From a virus (taxonomy: Duplodnaviria; Caudoviricetes), in the IMG/VR virus record IMGVR_UViG_3300028482_000001, positions 16,556-80,555 of that record: a DNA stretch of 64,000 nt. The stretch is one strand, 5' to 3'. Below are positions 16,347 through 35,910 of this stretch, one piece after another. Below the pieces are notes generated by a model. That model searched no databases. It was not told the DNA's origin and worked only from the letters and a program-made list of their open reading frames with translations. The position numbers were made by a program, and so were the translations under genes. Each line of letters starts with the position of its first letter. The first letter of the stretch is position 1.

Positions 16347-17969
16347 GTGGAAAAATTAACACCAGATGAAAGATTAGATTATCTTTATGCTTATTGTAAA
16401 TTTGATGATAAGCAACTTGTACTAGACCCTTGGCAAGAAGATTTTATTTTATCAACTAAACAATTTATTTCAATTCTTAAATCAAGACGTACTGGGTTTT
16501 CTTTTGCAACAGGTTTAAAAGGTTTGTCAAAAGCCTTAGATCCTGGTAGACAAAAGTATGTTAAACAATTTGTATCTTACAACGAATCCGACGCACAAGA
16601 AAAAATTAGGTACATACGCGAGTTTTATGATTCTATTCCGAATTTTGCAAAGAAAAAAATTATCACAGAAAATAAATCAGAAATTGAATTATTGGACGCA
16701 AATGGGAAAACTACATCTCGTTTAATTTCAATGCCTTGTAGACCACCTCGTGGAAAAGGTGGAGATATTTCTCTTGATGAATACGGTATATTTCTTCCTA
16801 ATATGTCTAAATTAGTATACACTGCTGCTTTGTATGTTATTTCTCGTGGTGGAACAATTGAAGTAGGTTCAACACCTTTAGGATGTATTGGTCGCTTTTA
16901 TGAAATCTGCACAGACAAGAAAAAATATCCTGCTTATCAAAGGTTTAATGTTCCTTGGTGGTTTTCTACTGCTCTGTGTATTGATGTAGGAACAGCTGTA
17001 CGTGAAGCACCTAATATGAACACAGAAGAAAGAGTCGAGAAATTTGCAACAGAAACACTTAAAGAAATATTTAGAAACGATGTTTTAGAAGATTTTCAGC
17101 AAGAGTGTGAATGTCTGTTCATTGATAGTGCCGAAAGTTATATCACTTTAGAAGAAATTTATTCCTGTACTCCTGGAATGAATGAAGATTATTCCAATGA
17201 AGATTTAGAAAAAGATTTAGAATTTGGTGAGGCAGACAGTTTCTTTGGTAAAGAATTACAAATTTGCAAGACTGTAGATGATATGTGTACTACAGAATAC
17301 AATCCGGAAAAACATGGAGTATTGTATTTAGGGTATGATATTGCAAAAAAAAGAGATGCTGCAAGTATTTTTGTTTTGGGGCTTTTACCAAATGGCAAAA
17401 AGAAAGTTTTTGGGTATGAAGAATTAAGGGGTAAAGATTTTGAATATCAAATTGCAGCAATAAAAAGATTAAATCAGGCATTGCCTATTAGAAGAATGTG
17501 TATTGACTGTACGGGAATGGGGTTGCCTATTCTGGAAAGACTTGAAAAAGATATTGGAAAAGCAAAAGTTGAGGGAATATATTTTACTGCACAGGCAAAA
17601 GAAGAAATGGCACAAGGAATAAAATTAGGTTTGCAACACAGAGAGTTTATTTTGCCTAATGATAAAAACTTGCATCATCAAATACACAGTATCAGAAGAA
17701 TTGCAACTAGTGGAAATAATTTTAGGTATGATGCAGATAGAGATGAGAACGGACATGCAGATACATTTTGGAGTTTTGCACTTGCAAATTTAGCTTGTGG
17801 AGATTCAAGAACTAATGGCTTTTATGAACAACGAGCAGAGAAAAAAATTAAAGAAAAACTGGCTCAAAAATCAATAAAACAAACAAATGATCAGAATGGA
17901 GAAAAAGATAGTGTAATTCAAAAGGGGAAAAGTTTAAGACAAATTAATAAAATGTTTGGGTATAGATAA
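16347..17969 (+). CDS. terL: Terminase large subunit (Mu gp28-like)
   Basis: 'LKSRRTGFS', 'DISLDE', 'FQQECECLF', 'GYDIAKKRD', 'HADTFWSFALA'. Confidence 0.92.
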   Translation: MEKLTPDERLDYLYAYCKFDDKQLVLDPWQEDFILSTKQFISILKSRRTGFSFATGLKGLSKALDPGRQKYVKQFVSYNESDAQEKIRYIREFYDSIPNFAKKKIITENKSEIELLDANGKTTSRLISMPCRPPRGKGGDISLDEYGIFLPNMSKLVYTAALYVISRGGTIEVGSTPLGCIGRFYEICTDKKKYPAYQRFNVPWWFSTALCIDVGTAVREAPNMNTEERVEKFATETLKEIFRNDVLEDFQQECECLFIDSAESYITLEEIYSCTPGMNEDYSNEDLEKDLEFGEADSFFGKELQICKTVDDMCTTEYNPEKHGVLYLGYDIAKKRDAASIFVLGLLPNGKKKVFGYEELRGKDFEYQIAAIKRLNQALPIRRMCIDCTGMGLPILERLEKDIGKAKVEGIYFTAQAKEEMAQGIKLGLQHREFILPNDKNLHHQIHSIRRIATSGNNFRYDADRDENGHADTFWSFALANLACGDSRTNGFYEQRAEKKIKEKLAQKSIKQTNDQNGEKDSVIQKGKSLRQINKMFGYR

Positions 17970-18001
17970 AATGGGAGAAAAAAAAGGAGCTTAGAAAAAA
18001 A

Positions 18002-18631
18002 ATGGTAAAATTGGTTATCAAGAAATCTGCTTATGTAGAGCTTTTAAAATCTTTTGGAGTGAAATACAAATATAAAAAACTCATAAATGGAAAATGGAGA
18101 TATTACTATGCGGATGATAGGGAAATATCTGTTAGATGGCATGAACACAATGCAACAAAACAAGAATTAAGAACTTTTATACACGATACAATAACTAATC
18201 CAAATTATGATGAAAATATTAAATTGTGTGATATACCTAGTCATTTTTCAAACAAACTTAAACTAAAATTAGGGATAAATATAGACAGTTTAACAATGGG
18301 AAGTTCTGAATTAAGACATTCGTTAAATCTAAGAAAACATAATATATCATCGGAAGATATTTTATTATTCAGACGAACAATACAAAATAAACATACAATT
18401 ATTCGTTATGAAGGTACTTCAAGAAGAAGAAAAACTAATTTGATAAAATTTAAAGGATATTCAAGAGGTACTATTTATTTTATAGCTAGTTATAATAAAT
18501 ACGGAGAATTAAAACTGTTTGATTGTTATAGGGAAGGCAAAATAGAAAAATCTGTGAGACTTCCATGTACATGCCCGGAAGCTAACGCCCTTGACGATTC
18601 ACAGCCTATACTTATAGTAACGCTTTTATAA
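18002..18631 (+). CDS. Putative head-cargo protein with PBECR3-like RNase domain
   Basis: N-terminal 'KLVIKKS..LLKS..KYKYKK.NGKWRYYY'; core 'LGINIDSLTMGSSELRHSLNLRKHNISSEDILL' resembles BECR-fold phage nucleases. Confidence 0.55.
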   Translation: MVKLVIKKSAYVELLKSFGVKYKYKKLINGKWRYYYADDREISVRWHEHNATKQELRTFIHDTITNPNYDENIKLCDIPSHFSNKLKLKLGINIDSLTMGSSELRHSLNLRKHNISSEDILLFRRTIQNKHTIIRYEGTSRRRKTNLIKFKGYSRGTIYFIASYNKYGELKLFDCYREGKIEKSVRLPCTCPEANALDDSQPILIVTLL

Positions 18632-18642
18632 AAAATTGTCAA
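18545..18642 (-). ncRNA. Antisense promoter plus ~62-nt hairpin sRNA (copy 1)
   Basis: Minus-strand TTGACA(18642-18637)-17-TACTAT; CUGUGA/UCACAG closing stem, internal CUUCC/GGAAG stem, U5. Confidence 0.55.
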
Positions 18643-18836
18643 ATAAAATGTTTTATAAATACGAAGACGTATTTATGAGAGAGTAAAGGTATAGGAATTT
18701 CCTACACCTTTGATGGGGTCTCTATTATCCACCCCATAATTATAGACAATTATTGTGGTTGACGGTATCGGAATTTGCGAGGTCGTGATTATTGATACAA
18801 AGGGGGTATCTGTTCGTTACCTCCTGTTATACGATT

Positions 18837-19160
18837 TTAGTTATTTTTCCAAAATTCAACTTGATTGTGAATAAGCGAAATAATGGAATCTCTTTTTTTA
18901 CCTTCTACTGTTAATAATTCATGTGCTACTTTTTGAATATCTAGGGGTAAATTGGTTGTAGGGTTTTCTCCAGTCAGTAACCATTCCATAGATACGTTTA
19001 ATAATTTGCTACACTGATATACAAATTCTGCATCAGGACTGTTTTGTCTTAAAAATCTTTGTTCTAAAGTTGATTTTTGAATATTTATCTTACTTGCCAA
19101 TTCTTTATGGGTAATACAGTTGTACTCTAATTCTCCTCTTAGTCTATCCCAAAAATTCAT
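18837..19160 (-). CDS. XRE HTH repressor, paralogue of 2724-3062
   Basis: Shared 'LNV(S/T)MEWLLTGENP..DIQK..QV.(F/Y)WKN'. Confidence 0.85.
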   Translation of the reverse strand: MNFWDRLRGELEYNCITHKELASKINIQKSTLEQRFLRQNSPDAEFVYQCSKLLNVSMEWLLTGENPTTNLPLDIQKVAHELLTVEGKKRDSIISLIHNQVEFWKNN

Positions 19161-19208
19161 ATTTTTTTATCCTTGTTTAATCACATTCCTTTTTATGTAT
19201 CGGAATAA

Positions 19209-19277
19209 TACTACATTTTATTAAATAAAAGTTGACAAGGTCAACAATTTGTAGTATAAATATTTTATGATACTACA
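19209..19277 (+). promoter_or_regulatory. Promoter with TACTACA operator half-sites
   Basis: TTGACA(19232)-17-TATAAA; tactaca at 19209 and 19271, inverted tgtagta at 19250. Confidence 0.6.
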
Positions 19278-19283
19278 AATTGT

Positions 19284-20003
19284 ATGATAAAAGGGGTGAA
19301 AATGCTAACAAATGTAATAATGAAATCGGAAAAGGATAGAGAGTTGTTTGGTGTTGTTATAAGACAAAACACCAAAGATTCAATGTTATCTTTAACTGAT
19401 TTGCAAGAGGCTTTTACTAGAGCAAGAATAATGAATGGTTGGAAATCAAAGGGTGAGATTCAGCATATTATCAATGGACAAGAAAATGCAGAACGTATTT
19501 ATTATGTCCTTTTAGAACAGAAGCTCATAAATTGTGATTATTCTCAATTTATGGAAATGGTACACGAAAAAGGGATGGTAAAAGTTTTGAAAGAATTAAG
19601 TGTTTACCGAACGACAGGCAGAGGGGAAAACAAACAATCTGTTTGCAATCCTTATATTTGGGTGTTAGTTGCAATGGAACTTAATCCTCAGTTATATGCC
19701 AAAGTTGTTACATGGTTGACAGACAAACTTATCCTTAATCGTATAGAAGCAGGGAATTTTTATAAATCTTTGTCAAGTGCATTGTATAAAATTCCTCAAC
19801 CGAATTATCCAGAAATTGCAAAAGCATTAAATACAAAAGTTTTTGGGAAACATGAAACAAGTATTAGAAACAAAGGGTCTCAAAAACAATTATCCGAACT
19901 TACAAGAATTGAAGATAATATTGCCTATTGTATTAACAAGGGTTTTTTCAAAACAAACGAAGATGTTTTAAACGCAATAAATGAATTTGAGGTTCAAAAA
20001 TGA
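19284..20003 (+). CDS. KilA-N-like DNA-binding protein
   Basis: 'ELFGVVIRQNTKDSMLSLTDL..TTGRG..PYIWVLVAMELNPQLYAKVVTW'. Confidence 0.7.
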   Translation: MIKGVKMLTNVIMKSEKDRELFGVVIRQNTKDSMLSLTDLQEAFTRARIMNGWKSKGEIQHIINGQENAERIYYVLLEQKLINCDYSQFMEMVHEKGMVKVLKELSVYRTTGRGENKQSVCNPYIWVLVAMELNPQLYAKVVTWLTDKLILNRIEAGNFYKSLSSALYKIPQPNYPEIAKALNTKVFGKHETSIRNKGSQKQLSELTRIEDNIAYCINKGFFKTNEDVLNAINEFEVQK

Positions 20004-20755
20004 AAAAAATAAAAACAATGAAGAAGTGTCAAAACCTACCACAGCTTACACTTCTTCAAAAGGAGCTACTAATGAATAACTCACTTATTTTATCGGATGT
20101 TAAGACTGAAAACTTAACTACAATGTCTACAAAAGAACTTGCAAATTTTCTAAAAACAAGTCCAAAAGTTATTTTAGAAAATGCAAAAAAATGTTTGCCT
20201 AATAAAAAAATTGAAAATGGTAAACCAACTTATTGGGATAAAGCAGAAGTAACTGTTTTAATTTATTTTATGCAAAATAATAAAACGACAATGTTTAATT
20301 CTCAAGCAAGTCAAGCTTTTACCGACGGGTTAAGGTCTGTTTCTACCGACCTAACACCAGCATTAAAATTAAAAAAGGCACTAGATTTAGCACAAGAAGC
20401 ATACGAAGAAGAACTACAAATAATTAGAGCAAGAGCAGAACTTGCAGAAAGTGTAGTAAATCGTATTGCAGATGGTAAAGGTTGTTACACAATGAACCAA
20501 ACAGCAAAAGCTCTAAAATTGCCTTACGGAAATATTAAATTGTTTGAAAAATTAAGAGCTATGCAGATTCTTAATCTTGATAACTCACCAAAACAAGAAC
20601 AAATTAACAATGGAAATTTTAAGGTAGTTGTAAAGTTTATTAACGAAAAAATCGGAAACAAACCTGTAACACTTACAACTAGTAAAGGACTTGTTTATTT
20701 AGCAAAAAAATTAAATACAGAAATTGATGAAAGTGTTTTACCCGATTACGAGTAG
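20000..20755 (+). CDS. Antirepressor with KilAC C-terminus
   Basis: 'YTMNQTAKALKLPYGNIKLFEKLR..TLTTSKGLVYL'. Confidence 0.8.
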   Translation: MKKIKTMKKCQNLPQLTLLQKELLMNNSLILSDVKTENLTTMSTKELANFLKTSPKVILENAKKCLPNKKIENGKPTYWDKAEVTVLIYFMQNNKTTMFNSQASQAFTDGLRSVSTDLTPALKLKKALDLAQEAYEEELQIIRARAELAESVVNRIADGKGCYTMNQTAKALKLPYGNIKLFEKLRAMQILNLDNSPKQEQINNGNFKVVVKFINEKIGNKPVTLTTSKGLVYLAKKLNTEIDESVLPDYE

Positions 20756-20893
20756 AAACTAACTTAAAGGAAGGTAAATATGGAAACAATTAAAAGCTTT
20801 ATTAAGTACTTGAAATTGTCAAAAAAGTATAAGGATGCAATAAGAAAAGTGATAGATAGTTTTTATGATGAATACAAATTGAAAAACTAACAC

Positions 20894-20992
20894 TTGAAAC
20901 AATTATAAACATGTAATAAAATTAATATGAACGATGTGTCAAAAAGACAGTCATTTATCTTTCATGGGATAAGTGGCTGTCTTTTTTTTTTG
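20894..20992 (+). promoter_or_regulatory. Late leader motif copy A (promoter + GATGTG + terminator hairpin)
   Basis: TTGAAA-17-TAAAAT; gatgtgtc; aagacagtca...tggctgtctt + T-tract. Confidence 0.8.
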
Positions 20993-21008
20993 TTTAGGAG
21001 TAATAAAA

Positions 21009-22631
21009 ATGGGCGGTTTTAAAGAAATTGATATAAAAAAAGAATTAAGAAAAAGGGTTGCATATAACCAAAAAGAAAATGGAAACGGTATTTTCAATAA
21101 AGATTTTTTCCTGGGGCAAGGAACGCTTGATAATGCAGATTCTATTTTTTATGATCCTTATTTTGTGTCTGAAAATGCTTTCCATGGAATTAGAACTATA
21201 TCACGTGTACAATTCGGGGGAATCCCATGTGCAACTTTAAGGAAAGTAGCTCAAAAAGCATGGATTATTAATACTTGTATTAATCACATCCAAAAGAAAA
21301 TCAAACCATTCTTAAAACCTGTAACAGATAGAAATTCTAGGGGCTTTTTGATTTATAAAAAGGGTGAAGATTTAACAAAGACACAAAAAGCCGATAAAAC
21401 GAGAGATGAAATTAGAGATTTTATTATTAACTGTGGGAACTTTGAAGATGCAGATAGAGATGATTTTGTTAAATATTGTATAAAAATTGTGCGTGATAAT
21501 TTAACTATTGATCAAGTTGCAACAGAATTACAGTACACAAAAGATAAAAAGTTATGTGCTTTTTATGCTGTAGATGCTGCAACAGTTGAAAAAGTAATCC
21601 CAAATAAAAATGTAAAAACAGATTGGAAATATATTCAAGTTGTAGATGGAATTCCTGCGGCCGGATATACAACTGATACAATGCTTTTTGATTTTGAAAA
21701 TCCAAGAACAGATATTTACCATTCTCAATATGGGTATTCATATGTAGAACAAGCAGTAGACTTAATAACATCATTTATTAATACTTTTGTATATAATGCC
21801 GGAAACTTTACAGAAAACAAACTTCCTAAAGGTATGCTTTTAATTAGCGGAGATGCAACTTCTGAACGAATTGAAGAAATGGAAGATTATATTGCTGAAA
21901 TTATGAGTGGTGGGCCACTTAATCAGTGGAGAATCCCAATAATTCCAGCAGGAGATAAAGAAGCAAGTATTGAATGGAAACAACTAAACGGAAACAACAG
22001 AGAAATGGAATTCCAACAATGGAATGACTATTTAACTAGTGCTGTAGTTGCTATGTTTGGTTGTTCAATGGATGAACTAGGAATTCAAAGCCAAAAATCA
22101 CAAACAATGTTTGAAAACTCTGGAGCAGACAGAATGTCGGCTAGTAAATCTTTGTTGTTAGGTGATTTATTAACATTTCTTGAATCTTACATAAATAAAA
22201 TCGTTAAAAAAATAAATCCTGATTATGTATTAGAATTTGTAGGATATGAAAAAGACAATCCAAACACTGTAGCAGATTTAGACGAAAAAGAAGTTAGAAC
22301 CTGGAAAAGTATTAACGAAAAAAGAGCAGAAAAAGGATTAGACCCTATAGACTTGTCAAAGATTGAAAACGGGGCAGACTTACCAATGAATGGTCAACTT
22401 GTACAAATGTTCCAGGCTGCACAAGCTCAAACAGGTATGGGCGATATGGGGGGAATGGGTGAAGAAGGAACAGAGGATAATGATGATTGGCAGAATTATG
22501 GAGATGAAGAAGGCACTAACGAAGAATCTAACAATGATTACAGTGGTTTAGAAGATTCCAAAAATACTAATGCTTATAGTGGACTTGAAGAAAGTTCAGA
22601 AGATATAAACAAATCATTATTAAGGATTTAG
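21009..22631 (+). CDS. Portal protein (SPO1/Twort-like)
   Basis: 'IDQVATE..AVDAATV..NFTENKLPKGML..QWRIPI..MEFQQW..AMFG..DELG..FVG'; follows TerL; acidic tail. Confidence 0.88.
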   Translation: MGGFKEIDIKKELRKRVAYNQKENGNGIFNKDFFLGQGTLDNADSIFYDPYFVSENAFHGIRTISRVQFGGIPCATLRKVAQKAWIINTCINHIQKKIKPFLKPVTDRNSRGFLIYKKGEDLTKTQKADKTRDEIRDFIINCGNFEDADRDDFVKYCIKIVRDNLTIDQVATELQYTKDKKLCAFYAVDAATVEKVIPNKNVKTDWKYIQVVDGIPAAGYTTDTMLFDFENPRTDIYHSQYGYSYVEQAVDLITSFINTFVYNAGNFTENKLPKGMLLISGDATSERIEEMEDYIAEIMSGGPLNQWRIPIIPAGDKEASIEWKQLNGNNREMEFQQWNDYLTSAVVAMFGCSMDELGIQSQKSQTMFENSGADRMSASKSLLLGDLLTFLESYINKIVKKINPDYVLEFVGYEKDNPNTVADLDEKEVRTWKSINEKRAEKGLDPIDLSKIENGADLPMNGQLVQMFQAAQAQTGMGDMGGMGEEGTEDNDDWQNYGDEEGTNEESNNDYSGLEDSKNTNAYSGLEESSEDINKSLLRI

Positions 22632-22635
22632 GGCG

Positions 22636-22809
22636 ATGAATGAAATTTGTAAAAATTGTACTTGGTGGGTAGAAGAAACTGACAAAATCGGAGAGTACGA
22701 ACATAAGGAAGCTCTAAAACAAAATAAAGGTTTTTGTTTGTGCCAAGATTTGTTTACAAATAAAGAACCTGATGATGAATGTGATTGTGGAGAATTTAAT
22801 CATGAGTAG
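22636..22809 (+). CDS. Small Cys-rich hypothetical protein
   Basis: 57 aa MNEICKNCTWW...CLC...CDC; below the ORF-track cutoff. Confidence 0.5.
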   Translation: MNEICKNCTWWVEETDKIGEYEHKEALKQNKGFCLCQDLFTNKEPDDECDCGEFNHE

Positions 22810-23002
22810 AAGTTATCGAAAAACACCAATAGTAAAAGATAATGGCAAACACAAACAATACTGGAAAAGACAAGCAAATAAAAGATGTCGCAAAGAAAGA
22901 GTTGGTAGTGGTGGGGAATATAAAAAGCATTATGATCAATACTCTATTTGTGATTGGAAGTTTAGATTAAAGAATTTGTGTAAAAAGAAAATGTCAAAAT
23001 AA
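22802..23002 (+). CDS. Small basic phage protein
   Basis: 'MSRSYRKTPI..KRQANKRCRK' type seen in many phages. Confidence 0.6.
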   Translation: MSRSYRKTPIVKDNGKHKQYWKRQANKRCRKERVGSGGEYKKHYDQYSICDWKFRLKNLCKKKMSK

Positions 23003-23058
23003 GGGAAATTAATGGAAAATTAAGGGAAATTTCCCTTGTTTATTTAAAAGGAGATAAA

Positions 23059-26000
23059 ATGGGAAAACTAGTAATTAAAAAATCTGTTGCAAATCAAATA
23101 ACAAGCAAATTAAAAACTCATAAAAATGATGATATAACGCCCGAATTTGCAGAAAATCTGCAAAAATCGGACTTATTTTCTGAAAATAAGCAAGTTTCAG
23201 TCAAATTACAGTCAAATAAAAATATAGGTGTAACTCCTGATGATTGTTATTATGATTTAGATAATCCCACAGAGAAATTTTATTATGATTTGAAAATGAA
23301 ATTTGCTCAGAGTGATAAAGCAGATGATATTGAGAAATCACATAAATATATAAGACGATGGAAAATGAATAATGGTGAATGGAGATATGAATATCCAAAA
23401 GGGGTTGATAAAAAAATACATTCATTTAGAGATGTAACAACAGCTCTAACAAATAAGACAACAGAAATAAAAGATATTCAACCATTAACAACAGAAAAAC
23501 AGATTGATGCAGAGCTTGAAAGATTAACAAAACTTTCAGAAGAAGGAAAACTTACTTGTCCGGCTTTAGGAAATGCAAATATTTACATTGAAGATATGAC
23601 TACAGAACATGCAGAAAAAACAAACGGTGTATTTAGAACAAAGGAAGCTAAAATTCATAAGTTACAATATCTTTCTTTTGTTGAAGATGTTCTTAAAAAT
23701 GGTATTCTATTTATGAAATCACGTAAATACAATCATGCTTGGTCATTAGATAAGATTTCAGAAAGAGAAAGAACTACTTATGGAATTATTAACAAGGTTA
23801 CATATTTTGACAAAAAGAAAAATAAAAACATAACATGTGGAATGGAAATTGTTGTTGCGTGGGATAATGAAAGAAAAAGGTTTGTGTTTTCATTTATTGA
23901 TAGACAAATAAAAAAATCCTTGTTATTTAACAAGGATTTTCAAACGACCACTTTCGAGGCGGGTCAGGTAGGTGCTTGTAAAACAGAGGCTTTTTCTACC
24001 ACCGACTCTATAATACCACATTTGATAAATTTGTCAAGTAGAAATGTAAATAAATCCCTTACTTATTCTGGTTATAAATTACAAGGTAGAACTAGACTTT
24101 ATGGCATGGATATTTCCATTGAAAATAAAAAAGGAAGTTATAGATGTGGTGTAGATTCAGATGGTCATAAGTGGGAAATTTTAATGCACTATGATTATGG
24201 ATATATTAGGGGAACTGTAGGAGTAGACAAAGATCACTTAGATTGTGTAAGCCCAGAAACAAAAATCTTAATGGCTGATTATACTGAAAAAAGTGCTGCA
24301 GATATAAAAGAAGGCGACGAACTTATTGGAATTAAATTAGAAACACAACAGCATAAGCAGCGAAAACAGATTAAAACTAAAGTTATTCATGTCAAAAAAG
24401 GTATGGATGATATGCTAGATATTACTCTTGAAAATGGTGTAAAACTGAGAACTACTAAAGGTCATTTACATTATTATTTTCAAGGTAAGACAAGAGATAA
24501 GTATTGGAAGCGTGCTGATGAATTAAAAATTGGTGATAAACTTGTAATGATTTACAATCATCATAATTTTGAAGAAACAGAAGATTATAAAAAGGGTTAT
24601 CTCTTTGGAGCTTATATCGGCGATGGATGTTATAATTTTGATGAATCAAAACAGGTTTATTGTGATATTAGAAAAGGCGTTGCTTTTATTGATGTTATAC
24701 ATAGAGTAAAACAATATTGGAATGATTTAGGTTTAGAAACATCTAAGATAAGAATAGACAAACCTAGACAGACAAATTCTTTATTAGCAGATGGTAGAAA
24801 AGTTATATCTAAAATGGATTTAGCTATATTATCTATTAGAGGTATAAACAAAATAAGATATATTAAATCAATTCTTGTAAAAAATCCTAAATCTTTTGAA
24901 TGGTGTCGTGGTTATATCGCTGGTTTATTTGATACAGATGGATGCTTGAATTGTAGACATGAATTCCTGATAACTCAAACCAAAAATCAAGATGAATTTA
25001 TGAAATTTACAATTGAATGTATTAATAAATTGGGTTATCAAGCAGTAAAAAGATACAATGAAATTAAATTACATACAGATTATATGGCTGATAATATAAC
25101 AATGGAGTTTACTCAAATTATTAAGCCAGCTCTTGAAAAGAAAAGAAACTTTTTAGGCCAAACTTATAGATATGAGCCATTGGAAATTGTGGATATAAAG
25201 CCATATACCGGGGAGTTTGTTGCTATTCAGACTGATGAACAGACATATATTGCAAATGGACTTGTAACACATAATTGCTATGTTGGACCAGATAAAAACA
25301 CAAAAAAAGTTTATGTAATTCATCAAAACAATCCTATTACTCATAAATACGATGAAGATAAATGTATGTTGTGTTTTGAAAGTGCAGATGCAGCCAAAAA
25401 AGCATATATGAAACAATATGATAGACCAGGATTTTTTGGAAGTATGGAAACATTAACTGTAGAACAATTCAAAACTTTTGTATTTTCAAAACAAGGTAGT
25501 AGAATACACAAATCCTTTGATATTGAAATAACTGATATTACTGAAAATAATAAGCAAAGAAAAGTTGAGCAAGTAGAAAAGGCATTAAACGCTATTTATA
25601 ATAACAAACCTTTTGTAATTGAGCATATTTCAAAAAAATTAGATTTCTCAAGAAAATATAATGATATTTTAATGAGAATTACTGATTTTGATAAAAACAA
25701 AATTGAAAAAGCTGTACATTCATTGGCATTTACATTAGATACTAAAGTTAAGGCAAGTAAAGGAGAGGCCTTTGTATATGCCAGTCAGGAAGATTTAACA
25801 AATCAGATTGTTAATGAAATTACTGAAAAAACAAAAAAGATTTATAATTTCGTAATTTCATTTTTTGACTTACCTGAAATTACTATCGTAAGAAAAGCAA
25901 ATTTAATTCATAAAGGGAAAATAATATACAATCCTGAAACAGGAGAACCTGTGAAAAAAGCAGAGTGGGATAAATTTGTAGAAGAATTAGAAAAAATGCT

Positions 26001-26706
26001 TAATAAAAATTATATGGGGTATGGTGAAAAAATAGTTTTAAAAGGTGAAACGTTAGGACTGATTTTAGATCGTCTTGCAAAAACTAATTCTTTTGAAGCA
26101 ATTCAGAAGAAAAAACTTTCGGACATTGTATATAAACGAAAACATTTTGATTGGATTTCGGATGATATAAAAAATTTAAAAACTATTATTGGTGAACCTA
26201 TATCAAGGGAACGGGCAGCAAGAATTGAAGTTGCGATGCAGAGTGTAGGGCAAAGAATATCAAGGGTAAAAGATTCTCTTAAAAATGAAATCCAGCAAGT
26301 TATTATTGACGGAATTAAAAACAAAGAATCGAAGAGAGTTGTTTCTCAAAATTTGTTTGATAAGTGTGTAGGACTTAATCGAGATTTTCAAAAAATTGCA
26401 GATAGTGAAATCCAAAATACAGTTAATAATGCATATATCAAAGAAGAAGTTTTTAATTCAGACGAAAATGAAAAAATCTATTTTAAAAGGTTTGAAGTGA
26501 TAGATGATAACACTTGTTCAAAATGTAAAAAAATAAAAGGGAAACTTGCACTTTATAGCAAAGTTCCTTTGGATGATGAACATATCAAGGATGAGTATGC
26601 TGATTATGCAATATGGGAAGGTAAAGTAGATGGAGATTTGCCTATGGGGATATTGCATCCTTATTGTCGTGGATCGTGGGTTAGGTATTATCCGGAGGTT
26701 GATTGA
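23059..26706 (+). CDS. Polyvalent protein: BECR/LPD3-like nuclease + InPase-like domain (intein-split) + MuF-like head morphogenesis domain
   Basis: InPase motifs 'ISIENKKGSYRCGVDSDGHKW..YGYIRGTVGVDKDHLD|CYVGP..YDEDKCMLCF'; C-terminal 'C..C...LHPYCR' MuF motif. Confidence 0.75.
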   Translation: MGKLVIKKSVANQITSKLKTHKNDDITPEFAENLQKSDLFSENKQVSVKLQSNKNIGVTPDDCYYDLDNPTEKFYYDLKMKFAQSDKADDIEKSHKYIRRWKMNNGEWRYEYPKGVDKKIHSFRDVTTALTNKTTEIKDIQPLTTEKQIDAELERLTKLSEEGKLTCPALGNANIYIEDMTTEHAEKTNGVFRTKEAKIHKLQYLSFVEDVLKNGILFMKSRKYNHAWSLDKISERERTTYGIINKVTYFDKKKNKNITCGMEIVVAWDNERKRFVFSFIDRQIKKSLLFNKDFQTTTFEAGQVGACKTEAFSTTDSIIPHLINLSSRNVNKSLTYSGYKLQGRTRLYGMDISIENKKGSYRCGVDSDGHKWEILMHYDYGYIRGTVGVDKDHLDCVSPETKILMADYTEKSAADIKEGDELIGIKLETQQHKQRKQIKTKVIHVKKGMDDMLDITLENGVKLRTTKGHLHYYFQGKTRDKYWKRADELKIGDKLVMIYNHHNFEETEDYKKGYLFGAYIGDGCYNFDESKQVYCDIRKGVAFIDVIHRVKQYWNDLGLETSKIRIDKPRQTNSLLADGRKVISKMDLAILSIRGINKIRYIKSILVKNPKSFEWCRGYIAGLFDTDGCLNCRHEFLITQTKNQDEFMKFTIECINKLGYQAVKRYNEIKLHTDYMADNITMEFTQIIKPALEKKRNFLGQTYRYEPLEIVDIKPYTGEFVAIQTDEQTYIANGLVTHNCYVGPDKNTKKVYVIHQNNPITHKYDEDKCMLCFESADAAKKAYMKQYDRPGFFGSMETLTVEQFKTFVFSKQGSRIHKSFDIEITDITENNKQRKVEQVEKALNAIYNNKPFVIEHISKKLDFSRKYNDILMRITDFDKNKIEKAVHSLAFTLDTKVKASKGEAFVYASQEDLTNQIVNEITEKTKKIYNFVISFFDLPEITIVRKANLIHKGKIIYNPETGEPVKKAEWDKFVEELEKMLNKNYMGYGEKIVLKGETLGLILDRLAKTNSFEAIQKKKLSDIVYKRKHFDWISDDIKNLKTIIGEPISRERAARIEVAMQSVGQRISRVKDSLKNEIQQVIIDGIKNKESKRVVSQNLFDKCVGLNRDFQKIADSEIQNTVNNAYIKEEVFNSDENEKIYFKRFEVIDDNTCSKCKKIKGKLALYSKVPLDDEHIKDEYADYAIWEGKVDGDLPMGILHPYCRGSWVRYYPEVD
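23910..24037 (-). ncRNA. Antisense promoter plus ~94-nt sRNA with terminator (copy 2)
   Basis: Minus-strand TTGACA(24037-24032)-16-TGnTATTAT; terminator aaaatccttgtt/aacaaggatttt + U7. Confidence 0.6.
24244..25275 (+). mobile_element. 344-aa intein with LAGLIDADG homing endonuclease
   Basis: Starts 'CVSPETKILMAD', ends 'YIANGLVTHN' followed by +1 Cys; endonuclease blocks 'YLFGAYIGDG' and 'YIAGLFDTDG'. Confidence 0.95.
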
Positions 26707-26730
26707 GTATTAAATTTAAAACTTTATCTA

Positions 26731-26895
26731 TTGACAAGTCGTAAATTTTATATTATAGTTTGATTATTAGTATTAATTTTAATACTAGTTGTTTTAAATA
26801 AAGAGTTGCGTATTTGTTTAAGACTATTACTAACCTATTATCTTTTTTCAACGCAACCCTAGATGACTAGGTGAAAAAAGGTGATAGGTTTTTTA
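26731..26895 (+). promoter_or_regulatory. Promoter, operator palindrome and structured attenuator leader
   Basis: TTGACA-17-TATAGT; tagtattaattttaatacta; terminator 26832-26850/26872-26890 + T-tract. Confidence 0.7.
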
Positions 26896-26917
26896 TTTTA
26901 AAGGAGTAAGGTAAGGT

Positions 26918-27412
26918 ATGATAGGATACAAAGCATTTGACAAAAATTTATGTTGTCGAGGATTCCGGTTTGAAGTTGGAAAAACTTACACAAAAGACAC
27001 TAAAAAAGAAGATTTAGAATGTTGTACTGACAAAGTATTTCATTTTTGTCGAGAACTTTTTGCTATAGAAAAAGAAAGTAATTACAAACTTTCAGAATCA
27101 AGAATTTGCGAAATTATCGCAGGTGAATATATAAAACAAGACGACAAGTACGGAACGAATTCAATTACAATCCTTCGTGAGATTATAGGAGATGAAAAAA
27201 AAGAACATAAACAAGAGATAAAAACCTGTGGTGGCTTTTTAAAATCTCTTGAATACAAAGAAGCGTTTAGATTGGCTTGGGATAAAGCAAGTAAAGAAGA
27301 ACATAAAAAACTTCTTAAACTTCCTAACTGGAATAATGAAATTTTTAAAGAAATTTCTGGAATCGACGCAGAAGCAGAAATAAAAAAAGAAAATAAGGAA
27401 TTAGAAAAATGA
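26918..27412 (+). CDS. Phage protein of the 'GYKAFDKNL.CRGF' family, lacking the usual central repeat region
   Basis: N-terminal 'GYKAFDKNLCCRGFRFEVGKTY' and C-terminal 'GGFLKSLEYKEAF..LPNWNNEIFKEISGID'. Confidence 0.65.
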   Translation: MIGYKAFDKNLCCRGFRFEVGKTYTKDTKKEDLECCTDKVFHFCRELFAIEKESNYKLSESRICEIIAGEYIKQDDKYGTNSITILREIIGDEKKEHKQEIKTCGGFLKSLEYKEAFRLAWDKASKEEHKKLLKLPNWNNEIFKEISGIDAEAEIKKENKELEK

Positions 27413-27735
27413 GTTTTAGTCCAGAAACAGAAAAATTAGTAAATGACTTAATCCAAGCAGAATACAAAAATGCTTGTGAAAAGTTTGGCGAAAAATATCA
27501 CTCACTTCACGAGGGGTGTGCAGTTCTTTTGGAAGAAGTAGAAGATGTTGAAGATTGTATAAAACGATTAAAGAATGAAATAGATTATATTTGGACTTAT
27601 ATCAAAAAAGATAAAACAAAAATTATAAAATATTCTGTTGATGATAGTTTCAATATATTTACAATTAATTCAATAAAAGAACTTGCACAAGTTGGAGCAG
27701 TTTTAATGAAGATTCAAAATACTTTGATGAGGTGA
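27409..27735 (+). CDS. MazG-like nucleotide pyrophosphatase
   Basis: 'HEGCAVLLEEVEDV...KELAQVGAV' all-alpha NTP-PPase pattern. Confidence 0.6.
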   Translation: MSFSPETEKLVNDLIQAEYKNACEKFGEKYHSLHEGCAVLLEEVEDVEDCIKRLKNEIDYIWTYIKKDKTKIIKYSVDDSFNIFTINSIKELAQVGAVLMKIQNTLMR

Positions 27736-27739
27736 AAGA

Positions 27740-27994
27740 ATGATTTGCGAAAAATGTCGTTATTGTTACGAGTTAGACCAGTCTAATGAAAGTAATGGGA
27801 AAGATATAATCCAATATTGCAAACACGGATTAGGCAATGCTTATGTTAACGGATATTGCGATTATCCTTTTGTTTTTATTCCAATAGTAATTTTATATTC
27901 TAAAATACGCAGATTTTTTTATAATAAAAGCATAAAAAAACATTTAGAGTATTATAAATTATTTGAGTCCATTATAAAGGATGTAGCAGAATGA
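27740..27994 (+). CDS. Hypothetical protein (CxxC, one hydrophobic segment)
   Basis: Operon-coupled ORF. Confidence 0.55.
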   Translation: MICEKCRYCYELDQSNESNGKDIIQYCKHGLGNAYVNGYCDYPFVFIPIVILYSKIRRFFYNKSIKKHLEYYKLFESIIKDVAE

Positions 27995-28350
27995 AAACTT
28001 GTAAAGTTTGTGGTGCTATTTTTTCTCCAAGAGATTACAGGCAAACAATCTGTTCTGATGAATGCAGAAAAGTTGCCAACAAAAAAAGATGTGCTTTATA
28101 TCGACAAACTCATACACCAATTAAAAATAAATGTGTTTTGTGTGGAGCAGTAACAAAAGGATTTATTTGTATGGGGTCGGAATGTAGAAAAATTTACCAT
28201 CAAGTTTATTCGTGGACGCAAAACAGAATGAAATATGATATTAGAGCAAGTGGAAAAAAATATATAAATCCACTTGAAAAAATCCAAGCGATAAAAGAAA
28301 AGTATAAAAACGGAGTTTCTGTTGAGATAATTAAACAAATGATGGAGTAA
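27991..28350 (+). CDS. Cys-rich Zn-finger protein
   Basis: 'CKVCG..F..ICSDECR..CVLCG..C..ECR'. Confidence 0.6.
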   Translation: MKTCKVCGAIFSPRDYRQTICSDECRKVANKKRCALYRQTHTPIKNKCVLCGAVTKGFICMGSECRKIYHQVYSWTQNRMKYDIRASGKKYINPLEKIQAIKEKYKNGVSVEIIKQMME

Positions 28351-28453
28351 AAAAAATGACAAAAGAAGAAAACGAAAAACTTATTGAAAGTGATTGTTAC
28401 AAATTGATTAAGGCTTTAGTTGATTTGTTGATTGCGTTGAAAAGATTTGATAA

Positions 28454-28843
28454 ATGGGAGAAAACAAAATGAAATACGTACAAGACACAAAAGAAAAATC
28501 AATTTTTATAAAGTTTTATGAAAATGACCCACTTGGATTCTGCAATCATAGAACCATAGATACAGAAGAAGCAAAAGAAAAATTACGTAAATTAAAACGA
28601 AAAATAGATTGCATTGAACGAGCGATAAATCTAGTAGAAATAAATAATACAAATGATTTGTGGAGCAGATACAAAAGAGGTGAACTTCCTGCAATTCATG
28701 ATTCTGGAGATATTGTAAAAGACGCTTTTCAAGACGCTTTGAATATTCAAGCTAATAGAATTCTTGGTAATTTGCAAAAACATTTTACAAATATGACAGA
28801 AGAAGAAATTGAAAATATAATTTTTCCTGATAATCGAGAATAA
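28454..28843 (+). CDS. Hypothetical protein
   Basis: 129-aa ORF in the accessory operon. Confidence 0.6.
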   Translation: MGENKMKYVQDTKEKSIFIKFYENDPLGFCNHRTIDTEEAKEKLRKLKRKIDCIERAINLVEINNTNDLWSRYKRGELPAIHDSGDIVKDAFQDALNIQANRILGNLQKHFTNMTEEEIENIIFPDNRE

Positions 28844-28862
28844 TTAAAAAGGAGGTAAAAGA

Positions 28863-29300
28863 ATGACAGATAAAGAATTAGAAAAGAAAGCAAAAGAATA
28901 TGCAAATAAAACACAGTTCACAGAATATGATAATCCGTCTTTGTCCGAAAGTTTAGATATTTCCGAAGATATAAAACAAGCATATATCGATGGTGGAAAA
29001 GAAAATCAACCTACTGTAGAAGAAATGCTCAAACGATTGATAAAAGGTGGATATGTTAAATCGGGTATTTATGAGAAAAAAGAACACTCTCAACAATGGC
29101 ACATCGTTACTAACGGAGATTTGCCGAAAGAGAAAAAAGAATATTGGTGTAAAGTATTTTATTATGAATCAGAAGAAACATTTAATGCTTTCTTATGGTT
29201 TGACCCTAGCACGAAAGAGTTTAAGTTTTTGGAAAATATAGGGGAAGATGAAGTGAGCGGATTTAAAGTTAAAGAATGGCGTGAGATACCAGAGGAGTAA
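28863..29300 (+). CDS. DUF551-like phage protein
   Basis: 'QWHIVTNGDLPKEKKEYW..VKEWREIPE'; RBS ggagg. Confidence 0.55.
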   Translation: MTDKELEKKAKEYANKTQFTEYDNPSLSESLDISEDIKQAYIDGGKENQPTVEEMLKRLIKGGYVKSGIYEKKEHSQQWHIVTNGDLPKEKKEYWCKVFYYESEETFNAFLWFDPSTKEFKFLENIGEDEVSGFKVKEWREIPEE

Positions 29301-29303
29301 ATT

Positions 29304-29777
29304 ATGAATATCACAACCTTAACAGAAAAATATTTTGAAAAAGTTAAATCAGATGATAAATCAACAACTCTATTTAAGGATTTATTCAAATCTGGAGCTT
29401 ATGCAGTTTTGAAAGAAATTAATAGACTTAACTTTCCAGCATTTACTTTGATTGATGATAATGATTTGTCTAAGCAAGGTTTTGTCAATATGCTTTTGAA
29501 TAAAATGGTTGGTGAAGATGACTCTGATTTTGTTGATAGCTGTTTGCACTTCATAGAATATAAGGCATATCATGAAGGTGAGCCCTCTATAAAAAGATTA
29601 TATGAAAATGATGATAAAAATTGGTTATTAGTTCAATTAGATGATGGAAGATTCGATATTGCCAAAAATGTTTGGGTCGATGATAAGAAAGAATCTTCGG
29701 TTTGGAAAAATCAAGATGGAAAAGTTTTGGATAATGTATTAAACTGGAGACCAATTTATCCAAATGGTGAAGTGTAA
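29304..29777 (+). CDS. Hypothetical protein (DUF551-like C-terminus)
   Basis: Ends 'VLNWRPI'. Confidence 0.5.
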   Translation: MNITTLTEKYFEKVKSDDKSTTLFKDLFKSGAYAVLKEINRLNFPAFTLIDDNDLSKQGFVNMLLNKMVGEDDSDFVDSCLHFIEYKAYHEGEPSIKRLYENDDKNWLLVQLDDGRFDIAKNVWVDDKKESSVWKNQDGKVLDNVLNWRPIYPNGEV

Positions 29778-29858
29778 AATAGGAGTAAACTATGTTTTTG
29801 ATACTTAAAACGATTGACTGAAAAGACGAAGATTACATCAAGGGTAATATAATCCCTT

Positions 29859-30119
29859 TTGGTTGGTGCGGAGTTCGGCTATAACAAGGCTAATGAATGG
29901 CATTATGTAAAAGATGGATGTTTACCGAAAGAAACAGATTTTCTTATGAGTAAAACACTTCTTTTAGTAACAAAAATGAAAGGCTCTGATTGCTTATTTC
30001 TTGTACTTGGGCAATACAATTTTTCGACACAAGAGTTTAGTTATCAACACATGGTTGGACTGACAGATGTTATCGCTTGGAAAGCGATTGTATCACCAAA
30101 GGAGACTGAACGAAAATGA
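29859..30119 (+). CDS. DUF551-like small protein or fragment
   Basis: 'EWHYVKDGCLPKE..VIAWKAI'; start uncertain. Confidence 0.45.
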   Translation: MVGAEFGYNKANEWHYVKDGCLPKETDFLMSKTLLLVTKMKGSDCLFLVLGQYNFSTQEFSYQHMVGLTDVIAWKAIVSPKETERK

Positions 30120-30443
30120 CTCAGAAAGTTAAATCGGCTTTAATTAAAGCAAATAAGGCAGAAGAACGACTTTTCAAAGCAGAAAGTGAATTATTTCTAG
30201 AGTGTCAAGAACTTTGTAACTACCCTTTAGAATTCTGTCAGTATCAACCTAGCGATGGGTTTTGTAAGGAATACGCATCGAATTAAATTGTGCACACTTT
30301 TCTCCAAATAAAGATGCTTTCAAAATGCTAATAAAAGAAAACGGGGATGTTGAAATTTTAGGATTGAATGAGGAGAGTAATTATGACAAAAAAAAGAAAA
30401 AATAATAGAAATAGTTTACATTATAACAACTTTATGGTATAAG

Positions 30444-30644
30444 TTGTTACGCAAAAAAGAAGGATTTTTTATGAAGAAATTTATGTTTTTTTTAAGTTGT
30501 ATTATTGGAATTGTTTGCGTTATTGGGGCATCAGTTGTTAAATTTGGGCTGAATTATAATATCAGTGATGTGTTTTTAATAATAAGTTATTTTTTGTGTC
30601 TTTTACCGATAGGAATATATGTTTTTGTTATTGAAAACAAATGA
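30444..30644 (+). CDS. Small two-TM membrane protein
   Basis: Two hydrophobic helices; preceded by a TATAAG -10-like site. Confidence 0.5.
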   Translation: MLRKKEGFFMKKFMFFLSCIIGIVCVIGASVVKFGLNYNISDVFLIISYFLCLLPIGIYVFVIENK

Positions 30645-30667
30645 AAAAAAATGTAATATATTATTAG

Positions 30668-30720
30668 GATGTGTCTTAAAGGCAGTCATGATGTTTAGTC
30701 GTGGCTGCCTTTTTTGTTTT
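30668..30720 (+). promoter_or_regulatory. Late leader motif copy B
   Basis: gatgtgtc-aaggcagtcatga..tcgtggctgcc + T6. Confidence 0.8.
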
Positions 30721-30736
30721 AAGCTTAGAATAAAGG

Positions 30737-33700
30737 ATGGGAAAAATGGCAAAGATTATTGTTAATTTGAATGAATTAAAAGGATTTTCTTTTTATCGTA
30801 ATTACATAGAAAAGGCGAAAAAGGGTGAAATGGTTGGTGGTAAATACATGTATAGGGAAGAAGTTCCTGAAAAAGTAAAAACAAGTAAAGGGAAAACTAC
30901 CGTAATTAGATATAAATATTATTATTTGACAGATATGCTTAAAGATAGTGCAGAAAAACTTCTTGAAAATATCGGTAAATTCTTTTTCAAGGGAAATGAA
31001 AAGGAAGTAAAAAAAATTGAAAATTCCTATAAAACTCAAAACATAGAAAAAGATTATGGAGCAGATAAAAAGACGTGGTATCAGCATTGTATGGAATATT
31101 TGAGCCACAAAGCAAAATGGGATAAAAGATTTTCAAATAAAGATAATGCTGAAAAGTTTAAAACACCTATCAAACAAAAAGTCGTAGAAAAAGTTGATAT
31201 TCCCGGAATGGAAACAGCAGCAGTAGAAACTCCAGAAATTAAAACATCAATTGAAACAGAGAAAAAAGAGGCAACCTGGAAACCCAACCCATCTTTAATG
31301 CGTAAAGTTTGGAGTTTATACAATGGTGTAGAATCTGTTAATAGCGGAGTTAGCGTTGGTGATACTGTAAATTTTAATGGGCGAAAAGGAACTGTAACAA
31401 AAAAAGTAAATGACAATATGGTTATGGTAAGTTTTGAAGATGGAGGTTTAGGCAGATTCTTTGCAAAAGACTTAAACAAAGTTGAAATTTCAAATGAAAG
31501 TGTAACAAATGAAGCTGATGTAAATGGTAAAATACAAGAAGTTGTAACAGGGCTAAATACTTCTAATGATACAGTTGAAGAAACAACGGATGGACAAGGT
31601 AATAAAATTGCAATGTTAGGTAACCAGAATGCAAAAAAGAATTTCGTTGACTTTATTGATAAGTTTATTACAAATGGTTATAAATCTGATAAGGTTGTAA
31701 ATCTTTTAGATACAACACCTTTAATTTTGCAAGAACATGGTATTCCAAATAATCCTATAAGTATAACACCTTCTGTTTTGAAAAAGATTTTAGAAAATGA
31801 TTTAAATGTTTATCATGGTCATAATATTTCTGTTGATATTTTAAAGGATCTACCTAATCAACTTGAAAATCCTGTTTATATACTGAAAGGTAAGGATGGG
31901 AAAAAGATTATTGTTACAGAATACTATGTAGAAAATAGACCTATAATTACAATTCTTGAAATAGATAGAAAAGAAGGTCGTACAAATGTAAATTCTGTAA
32001 GAAGTTTATATGATAAACAGAATACTGTATTTATGGAATGGATAAAAGATGATTCCATAGTTGAATATGAAAATAAAGAAAAAAGTAAGGTGCTATTACA
32101 GTCCATAGGTAACCAATATACCAAGGAGGTAACAACACCTTACATAAATAATAATACCACAAATATAGAAAATGTCAATAGTGAACATGGGAATTCTATA
32201 GCCATGCTTGGTAATGATAATGCTAAGAAAGATTTTGTTGATGTAAAACAAGGTTTTTCTGAAATGGATAAAAAACTTCTTGCTTTAGCATTGTACAAAG
32301 AAAAAGAATTTAATCCAACAATGAATGATTATTATTATTATGAAAAATTAAGATATAAATATCCTAATTTAGCTTCTAAAGGTAGTATTTATTCAATTAT
32401 GGAAGAATTAAAAGGAATAGATGTTAAAAATATAAACCTTGATGAAGTAAAAGAGTATGTAGAAAAGATTAAAGGTGGGGGTGATGAACCGCCAAAGAAT
32501 GATGCAAAAAAGAATTTCGTTGACGGATTGTCGCTTGATACAGAGTTAATTGCAAATGCAAATAATTCTTCATATATGTATGAAGCTGGAGATGCTATTA
32601 ATCGTGAATATCTTGGCGGAATTGAGGCTATCAATTCATGGGATTTGACAGATGAAGAAAAACAGAAAGCTAAACAAAAACTTTTTGAACTTACAACGGA
32701 ACAGTTAAAAGCCCAGGCAAAGGCTATATCTGTAACAGTCGCAGGACCAGCTAGGAAAGTAAGTGGAAGTGATACAGCATTTGATAAAGTTCAGAAAATC
32801 CGTGGGAAAATTAAAGAACTTCTTGATACAATAAGAGCTAAAAATAATACAAATGTTCAGAAACAGGAAATGAAAGATTTTACAACAGCAGCAACAGAGG
32901 CCATGAATAATAATAAACTTGCTTTTGTGTATGATGGTAAAGTTTATTATCGTGGTAATATAAAATCAAGCTCTTGGAGTGAAATAAATCATATTCCAGA
33001 AGTTGATGAAACAAAGACTGTTGATGAAAAGAAAAAAGAGTTGAAGAAACTCAAAGAAGAAAGTAAGAATCTCGGTTTTGCTAATCCAGAGAACACAAAA
33101 ACCCTTGATAGAATTGAAAAACTTAAAAATGAAATTGCATATATGAATACTGATGAATGGCAGAATCGACATAATGCCATGCTCGGTAATCAAAACGCAG
33201 CAAAACCATTTTCAGAAGAAGAAACAAAAAAAGAACAAAAGAAAGTAAAGGAAACAAGAGAAAAAGCAGGACTACCTAAAATAGGAATAAATTATGGGGA
33301 GAGAGTTTCTGCTATGGAAGATTCAGTTTCTCTTAATCCTAATGCGGAAAACTATGCTTATAAAGATACAGGTTATATTGCAGGTTCTCAAAAAGAAAAG
33401 ATTCAAGACTTTTGGAAAATAAAAAAGGAAAGTGGTGAAGGAACAAGTATAGAAGAAATAGATTGGAATACACTTGAAGAAAATCCTAGATATGCAGAAC
33501 AACAAATTACAAAATCAAATATTCTTGGAAATATTGATTATAATTCATTCAAAGAAAAAGGAATGGATTCTAGGGCAGCGTATTTAGCAAGTAGAGTATT
33601 TGCCGCAATTCCAAAAGAACCTACAGGTCATGATGTTACTGCTCGTAAGAATTATGTAATTGCTATAAACACAGTAAAGGAAAGACTTTCTGAATGTAAA

Positions 33701-35671: not shown

Positions 35672-35729
35672 TGTCTAAATTAATGTCTAAGATGTCTAAA
35701 TTAATTACAAGTTAGACATTTTTAGACAT
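35671..35729. repeat. ATGTCTAA x3 plus inverted TTAGACAT x2
   Basis: Copies at 35671, 35683, 35692 (direct) and 35712, 35722 (inverted). Confidence 0.85.
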
Positions 35730-35879
35730 TGATTTTTGACCAGAAGCTCCAACTGAGCATATTGATCCTTATTGGGGAGGTTGTACAGGGGAATATGCAA
35801 AAAAAAGAATGAAAGAACTTGAAAATGGTGTAAATGTTTTATAATAAAATCTGCAACTAGTTTTAAAAGAGTGATATAT

Positions 35880-35910
35880 AAGACCTTGTTAAACGCAAGG
35901 TCTTTTTTTT
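35880..35910 (+). terminator. Intrinsic terminator
   Basis: aagaccttg/caaggtctt + T8. Confidence 0.75.

Follow-up and report, generated by a model that had tools for sequence, protein, structure and literature searches.

Does a tailed phage carry small RNA genes hidden antisense within the linkers of its own polyvalent virion proteins, and if so, could these RNAs restrain the nuclease-type domains that they follow? The question arises from a 64,000-nucleotide (nt) stretch of a Caudoviricetes genome (IMG/VR record IMGVR_UViG_3300028482_000001), hereafter the window, which spans bases 16556-80555 of an 80,555-bp record that is complete, has direct terminal repeats and is ~30% GC. An initial annotation had proposed that three BECR-like nuclease domains, in open reading frames (ORFs) starting at 18002, 23059 and 30737 (sites 1, 2 and 3), are each followed by a minus-strand promoter and a structured RNA. 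Our analysis gives different answers for different sites: sites 2 and 3 are probably genuine antisense small RNA genes in post-domain linkers, linked to their domain as a cassette, with an RNA that would control or neutralise the neighbouring domain, and site 1 is unsupported. The features on which this rests are as follows, in window positions (aa, amino acid).

30737..35671, plus strand: P0001, a polyvalent virion-type protein of 1644 aa, in which MuF_C spans aa 359-451 and LPD1 aa 1533-1609
31811..32089, plus strand: MuF_C coding region (PF18819, a PBECR-type predicted RNase)
32178..32076, minus strand: whole unit of site 3, antisense to the P0001 linker
32151..32178, minus strand: site-3 promoter, with -35 TTGACA at 32178-32173, a 16-nt TG-containing spacer and -10 TATTAT at 32156-32151
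32076..32144, minus strand: predicted site-3 small RNA of ~65-70 nt, with a hairpin at 32143..32085 and a U-tract at 32084..32079
23059..26706, plus strand: P0002, a 1215-aa MuF-type polyvalent protein with an unassigned N-terminal domain, an intein-split InPase and Phage_Mu_F
23494..23928, plus strand: site-2 upstream domain, N-terminal alpha+beta (alignment A6), distantly LPD3-like, nuclease nature unproven
24037..23905, minus strand: whole unit of site 2, antisense to the P0002 linker
24010..24037, minus strand: site-2 promoter, TTGACA-16-TGnTATTAT
23905..24003, minus strand: predicted site-2 small RNA of ~100 nt, with helix P1 (24000-23996/23971-23967), a middle hairpin, a terminator hairpin (23939-23914) and a U-tract (23913-23907)

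The promoters of sites 2 and 3 both score 11/12 and have an extended -10 (TG). They are the best two minus-strand sites in our scan, and neither strand of the 80.5-kb genome has any other 11/12-plus-TG promoter. When the antisense strands of the two ORFs were simulated with a first-order Markov model, 0.023 such promoters were expected versus the 2 seen, and none of 2000 simulations contained two (P(>=2) < 0.0005). Promoter-like sites as a whole are not enriched over 17000-36000, where the count is below the shuffled expectation (78 vs 99.5). The two promoters had been said to have an 11-mer in common, and TGTGGTATTAT is indeed found in both; it is not a trace of protein homology, because the reading frames differ at the two sites (SIIPH vs NNTT). 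Site 1, by comparison, has a 10/12 promoter of a kind that is frequent in this AT-rich DNA, so the proposal of near-consensus promoters at all three sites stands for two of them.

The predicted RNAs also differ in strength between sites. At site 3, the minus strand forms a 59-nt hairpin followed by U6 (-27.9 kcal/mol, z = -6.9), and its plus-strand complement is less stable (-19.6 kcal/mol, z = -4.7). This hairpin contains the invariant core CCUCCUYGG-NN-NAYUGGN-NN-CCUAUGGAYUG. The ~100-nt RNA of site 2 has z = -2.6 and ends in its terminator hairpin and U7. Both units end like intrinsic terminators, with a 13-bp stem and U7 at site 2 and a 15-bp outer stem and U6 at site 3, and each RNA stops at the end of the upstream domain: at site 3, the U-tract lies at ~aa 448 and the MuF_C match covers aa 359-451. 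The expectation of a structured RNA ending in a U-tract at the domain end was thus borne out at sites 2 and 3 but not at site 1, where the fold has z = -0.6.

Rfam 15 gave no match at the gathering threshold in the whole window, and at 31900-32300 it gave only noise (E >= 2.5). The linkers which hold the units are predicted to be disordered: in AlphaFold models, the predicted local distance difference test score (pLDDT) stays <50 where the linker encodes the site-2 RNA and promoter and, in the MuF_C tail, over residues 130-141. Several of the unit RNAs also contain runs that resemble an anti-Shine-Dalgarno sequence, i.e., CCUCCUU (window 32113-32121), CUCCUCCUUUC (L001 2290-2300) and CCGCCUCG (window 23950-23960), and the sense strand therefore has internal GGAGG.

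Comparison with relatives supports site 3. Polyvalent proteins of differing architecture contain homologues of P0001 residues 290-560, and we fetched seven of the homologue DNAs and aligned them in the antisense direction. The hairpin, U-tract and TTGAC are nearly invariant in this alignment, and the flanks reach only ~76% column identity. The TTGAC of the -35 box is invariant in 8/8 homologues although the encoded residues vary. The U-tract is invariant in eight gut-phage relatives and is kept, with interruptions, in all members except L023. A compensatory change is visible by eye in L007, where AAGGUG/CACCUU has become CGGGCG/UGCCCG.

More distant members were found with a core-pattern scan that covered IMG/VR, JGI metagenomes and GTDB genomes. 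They include the GC-rich viral contigs L008/L009 and L010, a polyvalent ORF of Brenneria alni (L043; presumably prophage-borne), a stand-alone 232-aa MuF_C gene (L026) and the free-standing copies L023 and L051. The 20 metagenome and 16 genome matches to the core pattern are mostly chance occurrences in GC-rich DNA, and only L023, L026, L043 and L051 gave a score with the covariance model (R1). In unrelated genomes, matches to R1 have E = 1e-15 to 1e-25, and the embedded copies always lie directly behind a Pfam MuF_C match (L001-L010, L043 and L026). A blastn search (distant mode) of public phage records returned no relatives of site 2 or 3, and protein and alignment scans of IMG/VR and GTDB returned none of the site-2 domain, P0003 (the site-1 ORF), the site-3 segment or the L026 MuF_C gene.

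If the transcript were real, pairing should survive where the sequence changes, and covariation and conservation in homologous linkers had been put forward as the check to make. It came out in favour of the RNAs: 15/22 pairs at site 3 and 6/20 at site 2 have changed on both sides. For site 3, this count comes from alignment A3 (12 sequences from very different genomes), in which 92.1% of cells are paired. None of 500 shuffles was as high on any measure, and sliding the partner strand by 1-3 columns lowered pairing to 36-46%. The ORF-sense strand of the same alignment pairs less well (87.6%) and has fewer G-U cells (5, versus 16 on the RNA strand), which assigns the structure to the antisense transcript.

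The same DNA is read as protein, and the two codes interact. Two covarying pairs of the inner stem link the third position of a Gly codon with neighbouring first positions, and the residues there (N/V/L/T and T/P/S/A) change as pairing requires, so RNA pairing dictates the choice of amino acid. Synonymous differences per identical-residue codon pair at site 3 are 0.41 (domain), 0.24 (RNA) and 0.16 (promoter); the site-2 values are 0.30, 0.07 and 0.18, respectively. Synonymous change in the units of both sites is therefore 2-4 fold below that in the domain. Rfam has no match for the site-3 RNA, whose structured family is undescribed.

Site 2 rests on a smaller set. P0002 residues 120-400 have numerous homologues, and we compared six DNA sequences. 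All 5 sequences of alignment A2 keep CTTGAC at the -35 box, and the sixth relative, L038, has TTGATT-17-TAGATT in place of the consensus promoter. The terminator hairpin and U7 are kept at 42-44% protein identity, with the stem unchanged in L014 and compensatory changes in L038. Across the three helices, 92.5% of cells are paired, and slid controls gave 32-53%. A scan of IMG/VR with the site-2 terminator pattern returned nothing.

The site-3 RNA is also found where no MuF_C reading frame lies beneath it. In L023, a non-coding array of three tandem hairpins, each with an apical GGGGAAUUGGACC(CC), lies at 1737-1991 on the minus strand; it has its own TTGACA promoter and a terminator at its end, and it adjoins an integrase gene. 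The MuF_C reading frame is riddled with stops there, i.e., none lies beneath the RNA. The L051 copy follows a primase-like gene and is out of frame with the only ORF that overlaps it, and the 5.2-Mb host genome has no MuF_C match. A divergent member, from another genome of the order sampled around Brenneria, keeps only the apical GGGC-AAUUGGA-GCCC. The core is kept in free-standing copies without coding constraint, which makes the RNA an independent module. As read from sequence, the presence of copies without a MuF_C gene (L023 and L051) is compatible with a neutraliser that acts in trans.

Where embedded, the RNA is tied to its domain. At site 3, blastn homology ends at 32178/32179 in L004, L005 and L007, which have other downstream domains, and site-2 homology with L013, which has a different downstream protein, ends at ~24020, just past the -35 box. 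With this break at the -35 box, a single cassette is made up of domain, terminator, RNA and promoter. The modular arrangement of a nuclease-type domain with an antisense RNA, as initially proposed, is thus found at sites 2 and 3 and in their relatives, with site 1 again falling outside.

Other domains of this kind carry units of their own in the relatives. LPD3 domains are followed by units in L001 (2367..2272, with the same promoter but a different RNA, z = -4.5) and L005, and there is a third L001 unit. Behind PBECR2 (L003 and L006), whose Pfam match ends at aa 739/740, the U-tract falls at 740/741. The PBECR2 unit (L003 3215-3440, minus strand; also in L006) is longer, at ~190 nt, with two internal repeats GUCUCCCUUGUCGUGCCUNCCA and then a 14-kcal terminator. 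A PBECR1 unit lies at L003 3999..3860 (z = -3.65), and an analogous unit probably follows PBECR3 in L007, where it is less clear. Terminator-like sites in 13 polyvalent ORFs are all antisense (19, versus 0 sense). The elements had been described as confined to nuclease-type domains, with none after the InPase, and this agrees with what we found, in small numbers: P0001 contains four AMLGNxNAKK-like linkers, of which the other three have no comparable promoter, and neither does the InPase/intein/Mu_F part of P0002.

These linkers are repetitive. The peptide (H)GNxIAMLGNxNAKKxF recurs at 31600-31660, 32185-32240, 32480-32520 and 33190-33215, with copies in L001 and L003, and the linker DNA is 76-91% identical within and between polyvalent genes. 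P0013 aligns with P0001 to ~aa 310 and resumes at ~aa 463, so that the MuF_C cassette between two repeats is apparently missing. Together, the repeats and the alignment gap suggest recombination at the linkers.

How firmly can the domains be called nucleases? For P0001 the family assignment is clear, with MuF_C matched at E = 2.8e-18 (66.4 bits against a Pfam cut-off of 27.6) and its homologues also above the cut-off. MuF-C is classed as a PBECR predicted RNase by Iyer et al. 2017 (PMC5512222). The AlphaFold2 model of MuF_C plus its tail (pLDDT 74.6) had no Foldseek match at E <= 0.001, and its weak top matches included HigB2, RelE, YoeB/ParE and BrnT toxins (probability <=0.84, TM-score <=0.65). 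The site-2 domain has a weak link to LPD3 via its homologue P0128 (E = 0.024); its AlphaFold2 model (pLDDT 61) gave no fold match with Foldseek, and its hhalign comparison with MuF_C was not significant. LPD functions are listed as unknown by Iyer et al. 2017 (PMC5512222). For P0003, there was no Pfam or nuclease family match and hhalign to MuF_C was not significant. What had been read as three BECR-like nuclease domains is thus one predicted domain of this kind, MuF_C, and two proteins (the 23059 N-terminal domain and the 18002 protein) with no nuclease family match. In relatives, ParE-like, HicA-like and Zeta-toxin-like genes adjoin polyvalent genes (L003 402-662 and 6302-6472; L007 4444-4730; L038 3784-4264).

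The features of site 1 are as follows.

18002..18631: P0003, a 209-aa ORF
18540..18642, minus strand: site-1 candidate at the 3' end of this ORF, with a promoter-like sequence (18642..18614), a weak hairpin and a U-rich run; unsupported

Its fold is no better than that of shuffled sequences, 54/200 of which equal it. The C-terminal tail of P0003 is conserved as protein among homologues, and in P0147 the residues RLP and PEA are replaced by KAQ and PKP, which, judging by the residues, cannot encode a complementary inner stem. The weak fold, the weak promoter and the incompatible residues of P0147 are the reasons for which we set this site aside.

For sites 2 and 3, conservation, covariation, dual coding and a cassette boundary are established by comparison of related sequences, and what the RNAs do is a separate question. 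We think it probable that they act on their own domain. Host RNA polymerase would transcribe the RNA whenever phage DNA is present, the RNA would plausibly control or neutralise the neighbouring domain, and the unit would travel with its upstream domain when domains shuffle between proteins. Two routes could lead to this result, and we give them roughly equal odds. By the first, a YUNR-type loop (UUGG) would pair with a complementary hairpin in the sense messenger RNA (mRNA), as in type I antitoxins and lambda OOP. Full complementarity to the sense mRNA, the position of UUGG in the invariant apical loop and the complementary sense hairpin favour this route. By the second, the RNA would bind the RNase domain itself, as type III antitoxins do, and this is favoured by the sequence invariance across GC contents, the free-standing core, the L023 array and the orphan in a genome without MuF_C. 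We put forward tentatively, as a possibility on which we would not rely, that the second route amounts to a new mode of self-protection: the dual-coded linker RNA would bind and silence the virion-delivered RNase domain in producer or lysogen, and the free-standing copies would be stolen immunity against injected MuF_C.

Several observations weigh against this explanation of sites 2 and 3. The site-3 RNA has its core where the domain's most conserved peptide (SIG.Q...E) is encoded, so the nucleotide conservation of embedded copies could be partly protein-driven. The promoters of the GC-rich members are weaker, the site-2 family consists of six sequences only, and the count behind the specificity is small. 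The site-2 domain is without demonstrable nuclease homology in profile, fold and hhalign comparisons, and 'nuclease-specific' is therefore firm only for the MuF_C and PBECR domains. Lastly, promoter-plus-AMLGN DNA is repeated inside one gene (L001, 84-91% identity), which means that recombination or gene conversion also homogenises linkers.

The serious rival is that these are real but ordinary trans-acting phage small RNAs, which would use C/U-rich seeds resembling anti-Shine-Dalgarno sequences against host or phage mRNAs, with the linkers merely tolerating a second code. CCUCC-like runs in several of the RNAs (ACCUCCUUGG at site 3, CUCCUCCUUUC in unit 2 of L001 and CCGCCUCG at site 2) speak for it, as do free-standing copies without a MuF_C gene and linkers that are predicted to be disordered. 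It does not account for the constant position of the site-3 RNA behind MuF_C in both AT-rich and GC-rich phages, for the different RNAs that different nuclease-type domains bear at the equivalent position or for the movement of domain and RNA as a single cassette. We consider it unlikely on balance.

It is improbable that the structure acts instead on the sense mRNA or the DNA, e.g., as a pause or folding element or a recombination hot spot, with the promoter and terminator signals as by-products. The sense strand does fold (z = -4.7) and contains AAGGAGG, and homology breaks off at linker DNA that recurs within genes. However, the G-U cells favour the antisense strand (16 vs 5), the -35, -10 and U-tract are conserved while the encoded residues vary, and the promoter and terminator of free-standing copies face the same way as the RNA, with no frame beneath. 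There is also no start codon at a usable distance after the sense AAGGAGG. We rejected two related candidates: an internal translation start from AAGGAGG (no start codon at usable spacing, and the next gene in L026 is ~70 nt away) and an integron attC-like or other DNA-level hairpin (in view of the promoter, U-tract and G-U asymmetry).

Chance is hardly credible for sites 2 and 3, for although promoter-like and hairpin-like strings are expected at 30% GC, the scan found 78 vs 99.5 expected promoter-like sites and site 1 looks like shuffles, this reading is strongly at odds with 2 promoters where 0.023 were expected, the covariation, the synonymous suppression or covariance model matches of E = 1e-15 to 1e-25.

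An RNA that controls its own domain would have precedents of two kinds. Cis-antisense RNAs over the 3' ends of coding sequences include lambda OOP (against cII) and the Bacillus prophage type I antitoxins RatA/txpA and SR4/bsrG. Like these, the units described here are phage- or prophage-borne and specify a short RNA with its own promoter and intrinsic terminator and full complementarity to the 3' portion of the coding region for a toxin or regulator, and the YUNR-type loop suits kissing-loop initiation. As predicted from sequence, the RNA is thus antisense to the mRNA of a candidate toxin, as in type I systems. Unlike in those systems, the overlap falls in an internal linker of a multidomain protein of 1200-1650 aa (1215 aa and 1644 aa in the window) and not at the end of a small gene, and in place of a small membrane peptide there is an RNase-type domain as putative toxin. 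The core is also invariant across distant hosts and occurs free-standing, and pure cis-antisense action needs neither.

Type III systems (ToxIN, CptIN and TenpIN) have a tandem-repeat RNA upstream of the toxin on the same strand, with a terminator between the two. The resemblance lies in a structured RNA that is genetically coupled to an endoribonuclease-type protein, in the three-hairpin array of L023 and in a conserved primary sequence, which would fit recognition by protein. The differences are that the RNA is antisense within the toxin frame, single-copy and downstream of the domain, with only the L023 orphan in tandem, and that MuF_C is unrelated to ToxN/AbiQ.

The closest setting is that of MuF polymorphic toxins and polyvalent proteins, with which the window has in common the MuF, MuF_C/PBECR, LPD and InPase families, the genomic setting and the problem of self-protection. 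The Pfam architectures are those of polyvalent proteins as defined by Iyer et al. 2017, which combine several unrelated effector-type domains in a single virion-associated polypeptide, and terminase, portal and Mu_F genes are neighbours. In the available texts, protein immunity genes are described for MuF toxins by Jamet et al. 2017 (PMC5576092) and also by Iyer et al. 2017 (PMC5512222) and a BECR classification preprint (10.64898/2026.08.28.747851), whereas the units here are RNAs. The words 'antisense' and 'linker' are absent from the available part of Iyer et al. 2017 (PMC5512222), as are 'antisense', 'type III' and 'RNA antitoxin' from that of the preprint (10.64898/2026.08.28.747851). Full-text literature searches, the coverage of which is incomplete, found no similar arrangement.

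The remaining features of the region are listed here.

16347..17969: terminase large subunit
Other genes of the region: a minus-strand CI-like repressor, an antirepressor, and portal, head and tail genes

An intein with a LAGLIDADG homing-endonuclease domain interrupts the InPase of P0002 (window 24271-25276, aa 405-739), and close P0002 homologues of 850-912 aa are intein-free. The three proteins have an N-terminal motif in common, M.KLVIKKS... followed by K(Y/W)..R...NG.WRY.Y (18002-18130, 23059-23400 and 30737-30940), which may be a head-targeting or packaging signal. Outside the window, at genome positions 10,840-11,040 (L036 1650-1850, minus strand), an intergenic TTGACA-17-TATTAT precedes a GC-rich structured RNA of ~160 nt, which is followed by a strong terminator and has no Rfam match. 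A 171-aa ORF lies on one side and a gene for an N6/N4 DNA methylase on the other.

By these comparisons, sites 2 and 3 would widen the known range of cis-encoded RNA regulators or antitoxins. At their centre is a structured RNA family that is undescribed and covaries clearly, with striking dual coding of protein and RNA. The safeguards proposed for polyvalent and MuF effectors, as given by Iyer et al. 2017 (PMC5512222), are limited to protein immunity genes and to activation by proteolysis. An RNA gene in the effector's own frame would be a concrete answer to the question of how toxic domains stay harmless while they are made and packaged. It also implies that annotation pipelines overlook RNA genes which lie antisense within long ORFs, and it suggests that domain shuffling in polyvalent proteins moves units of 'domain plus RNA'.

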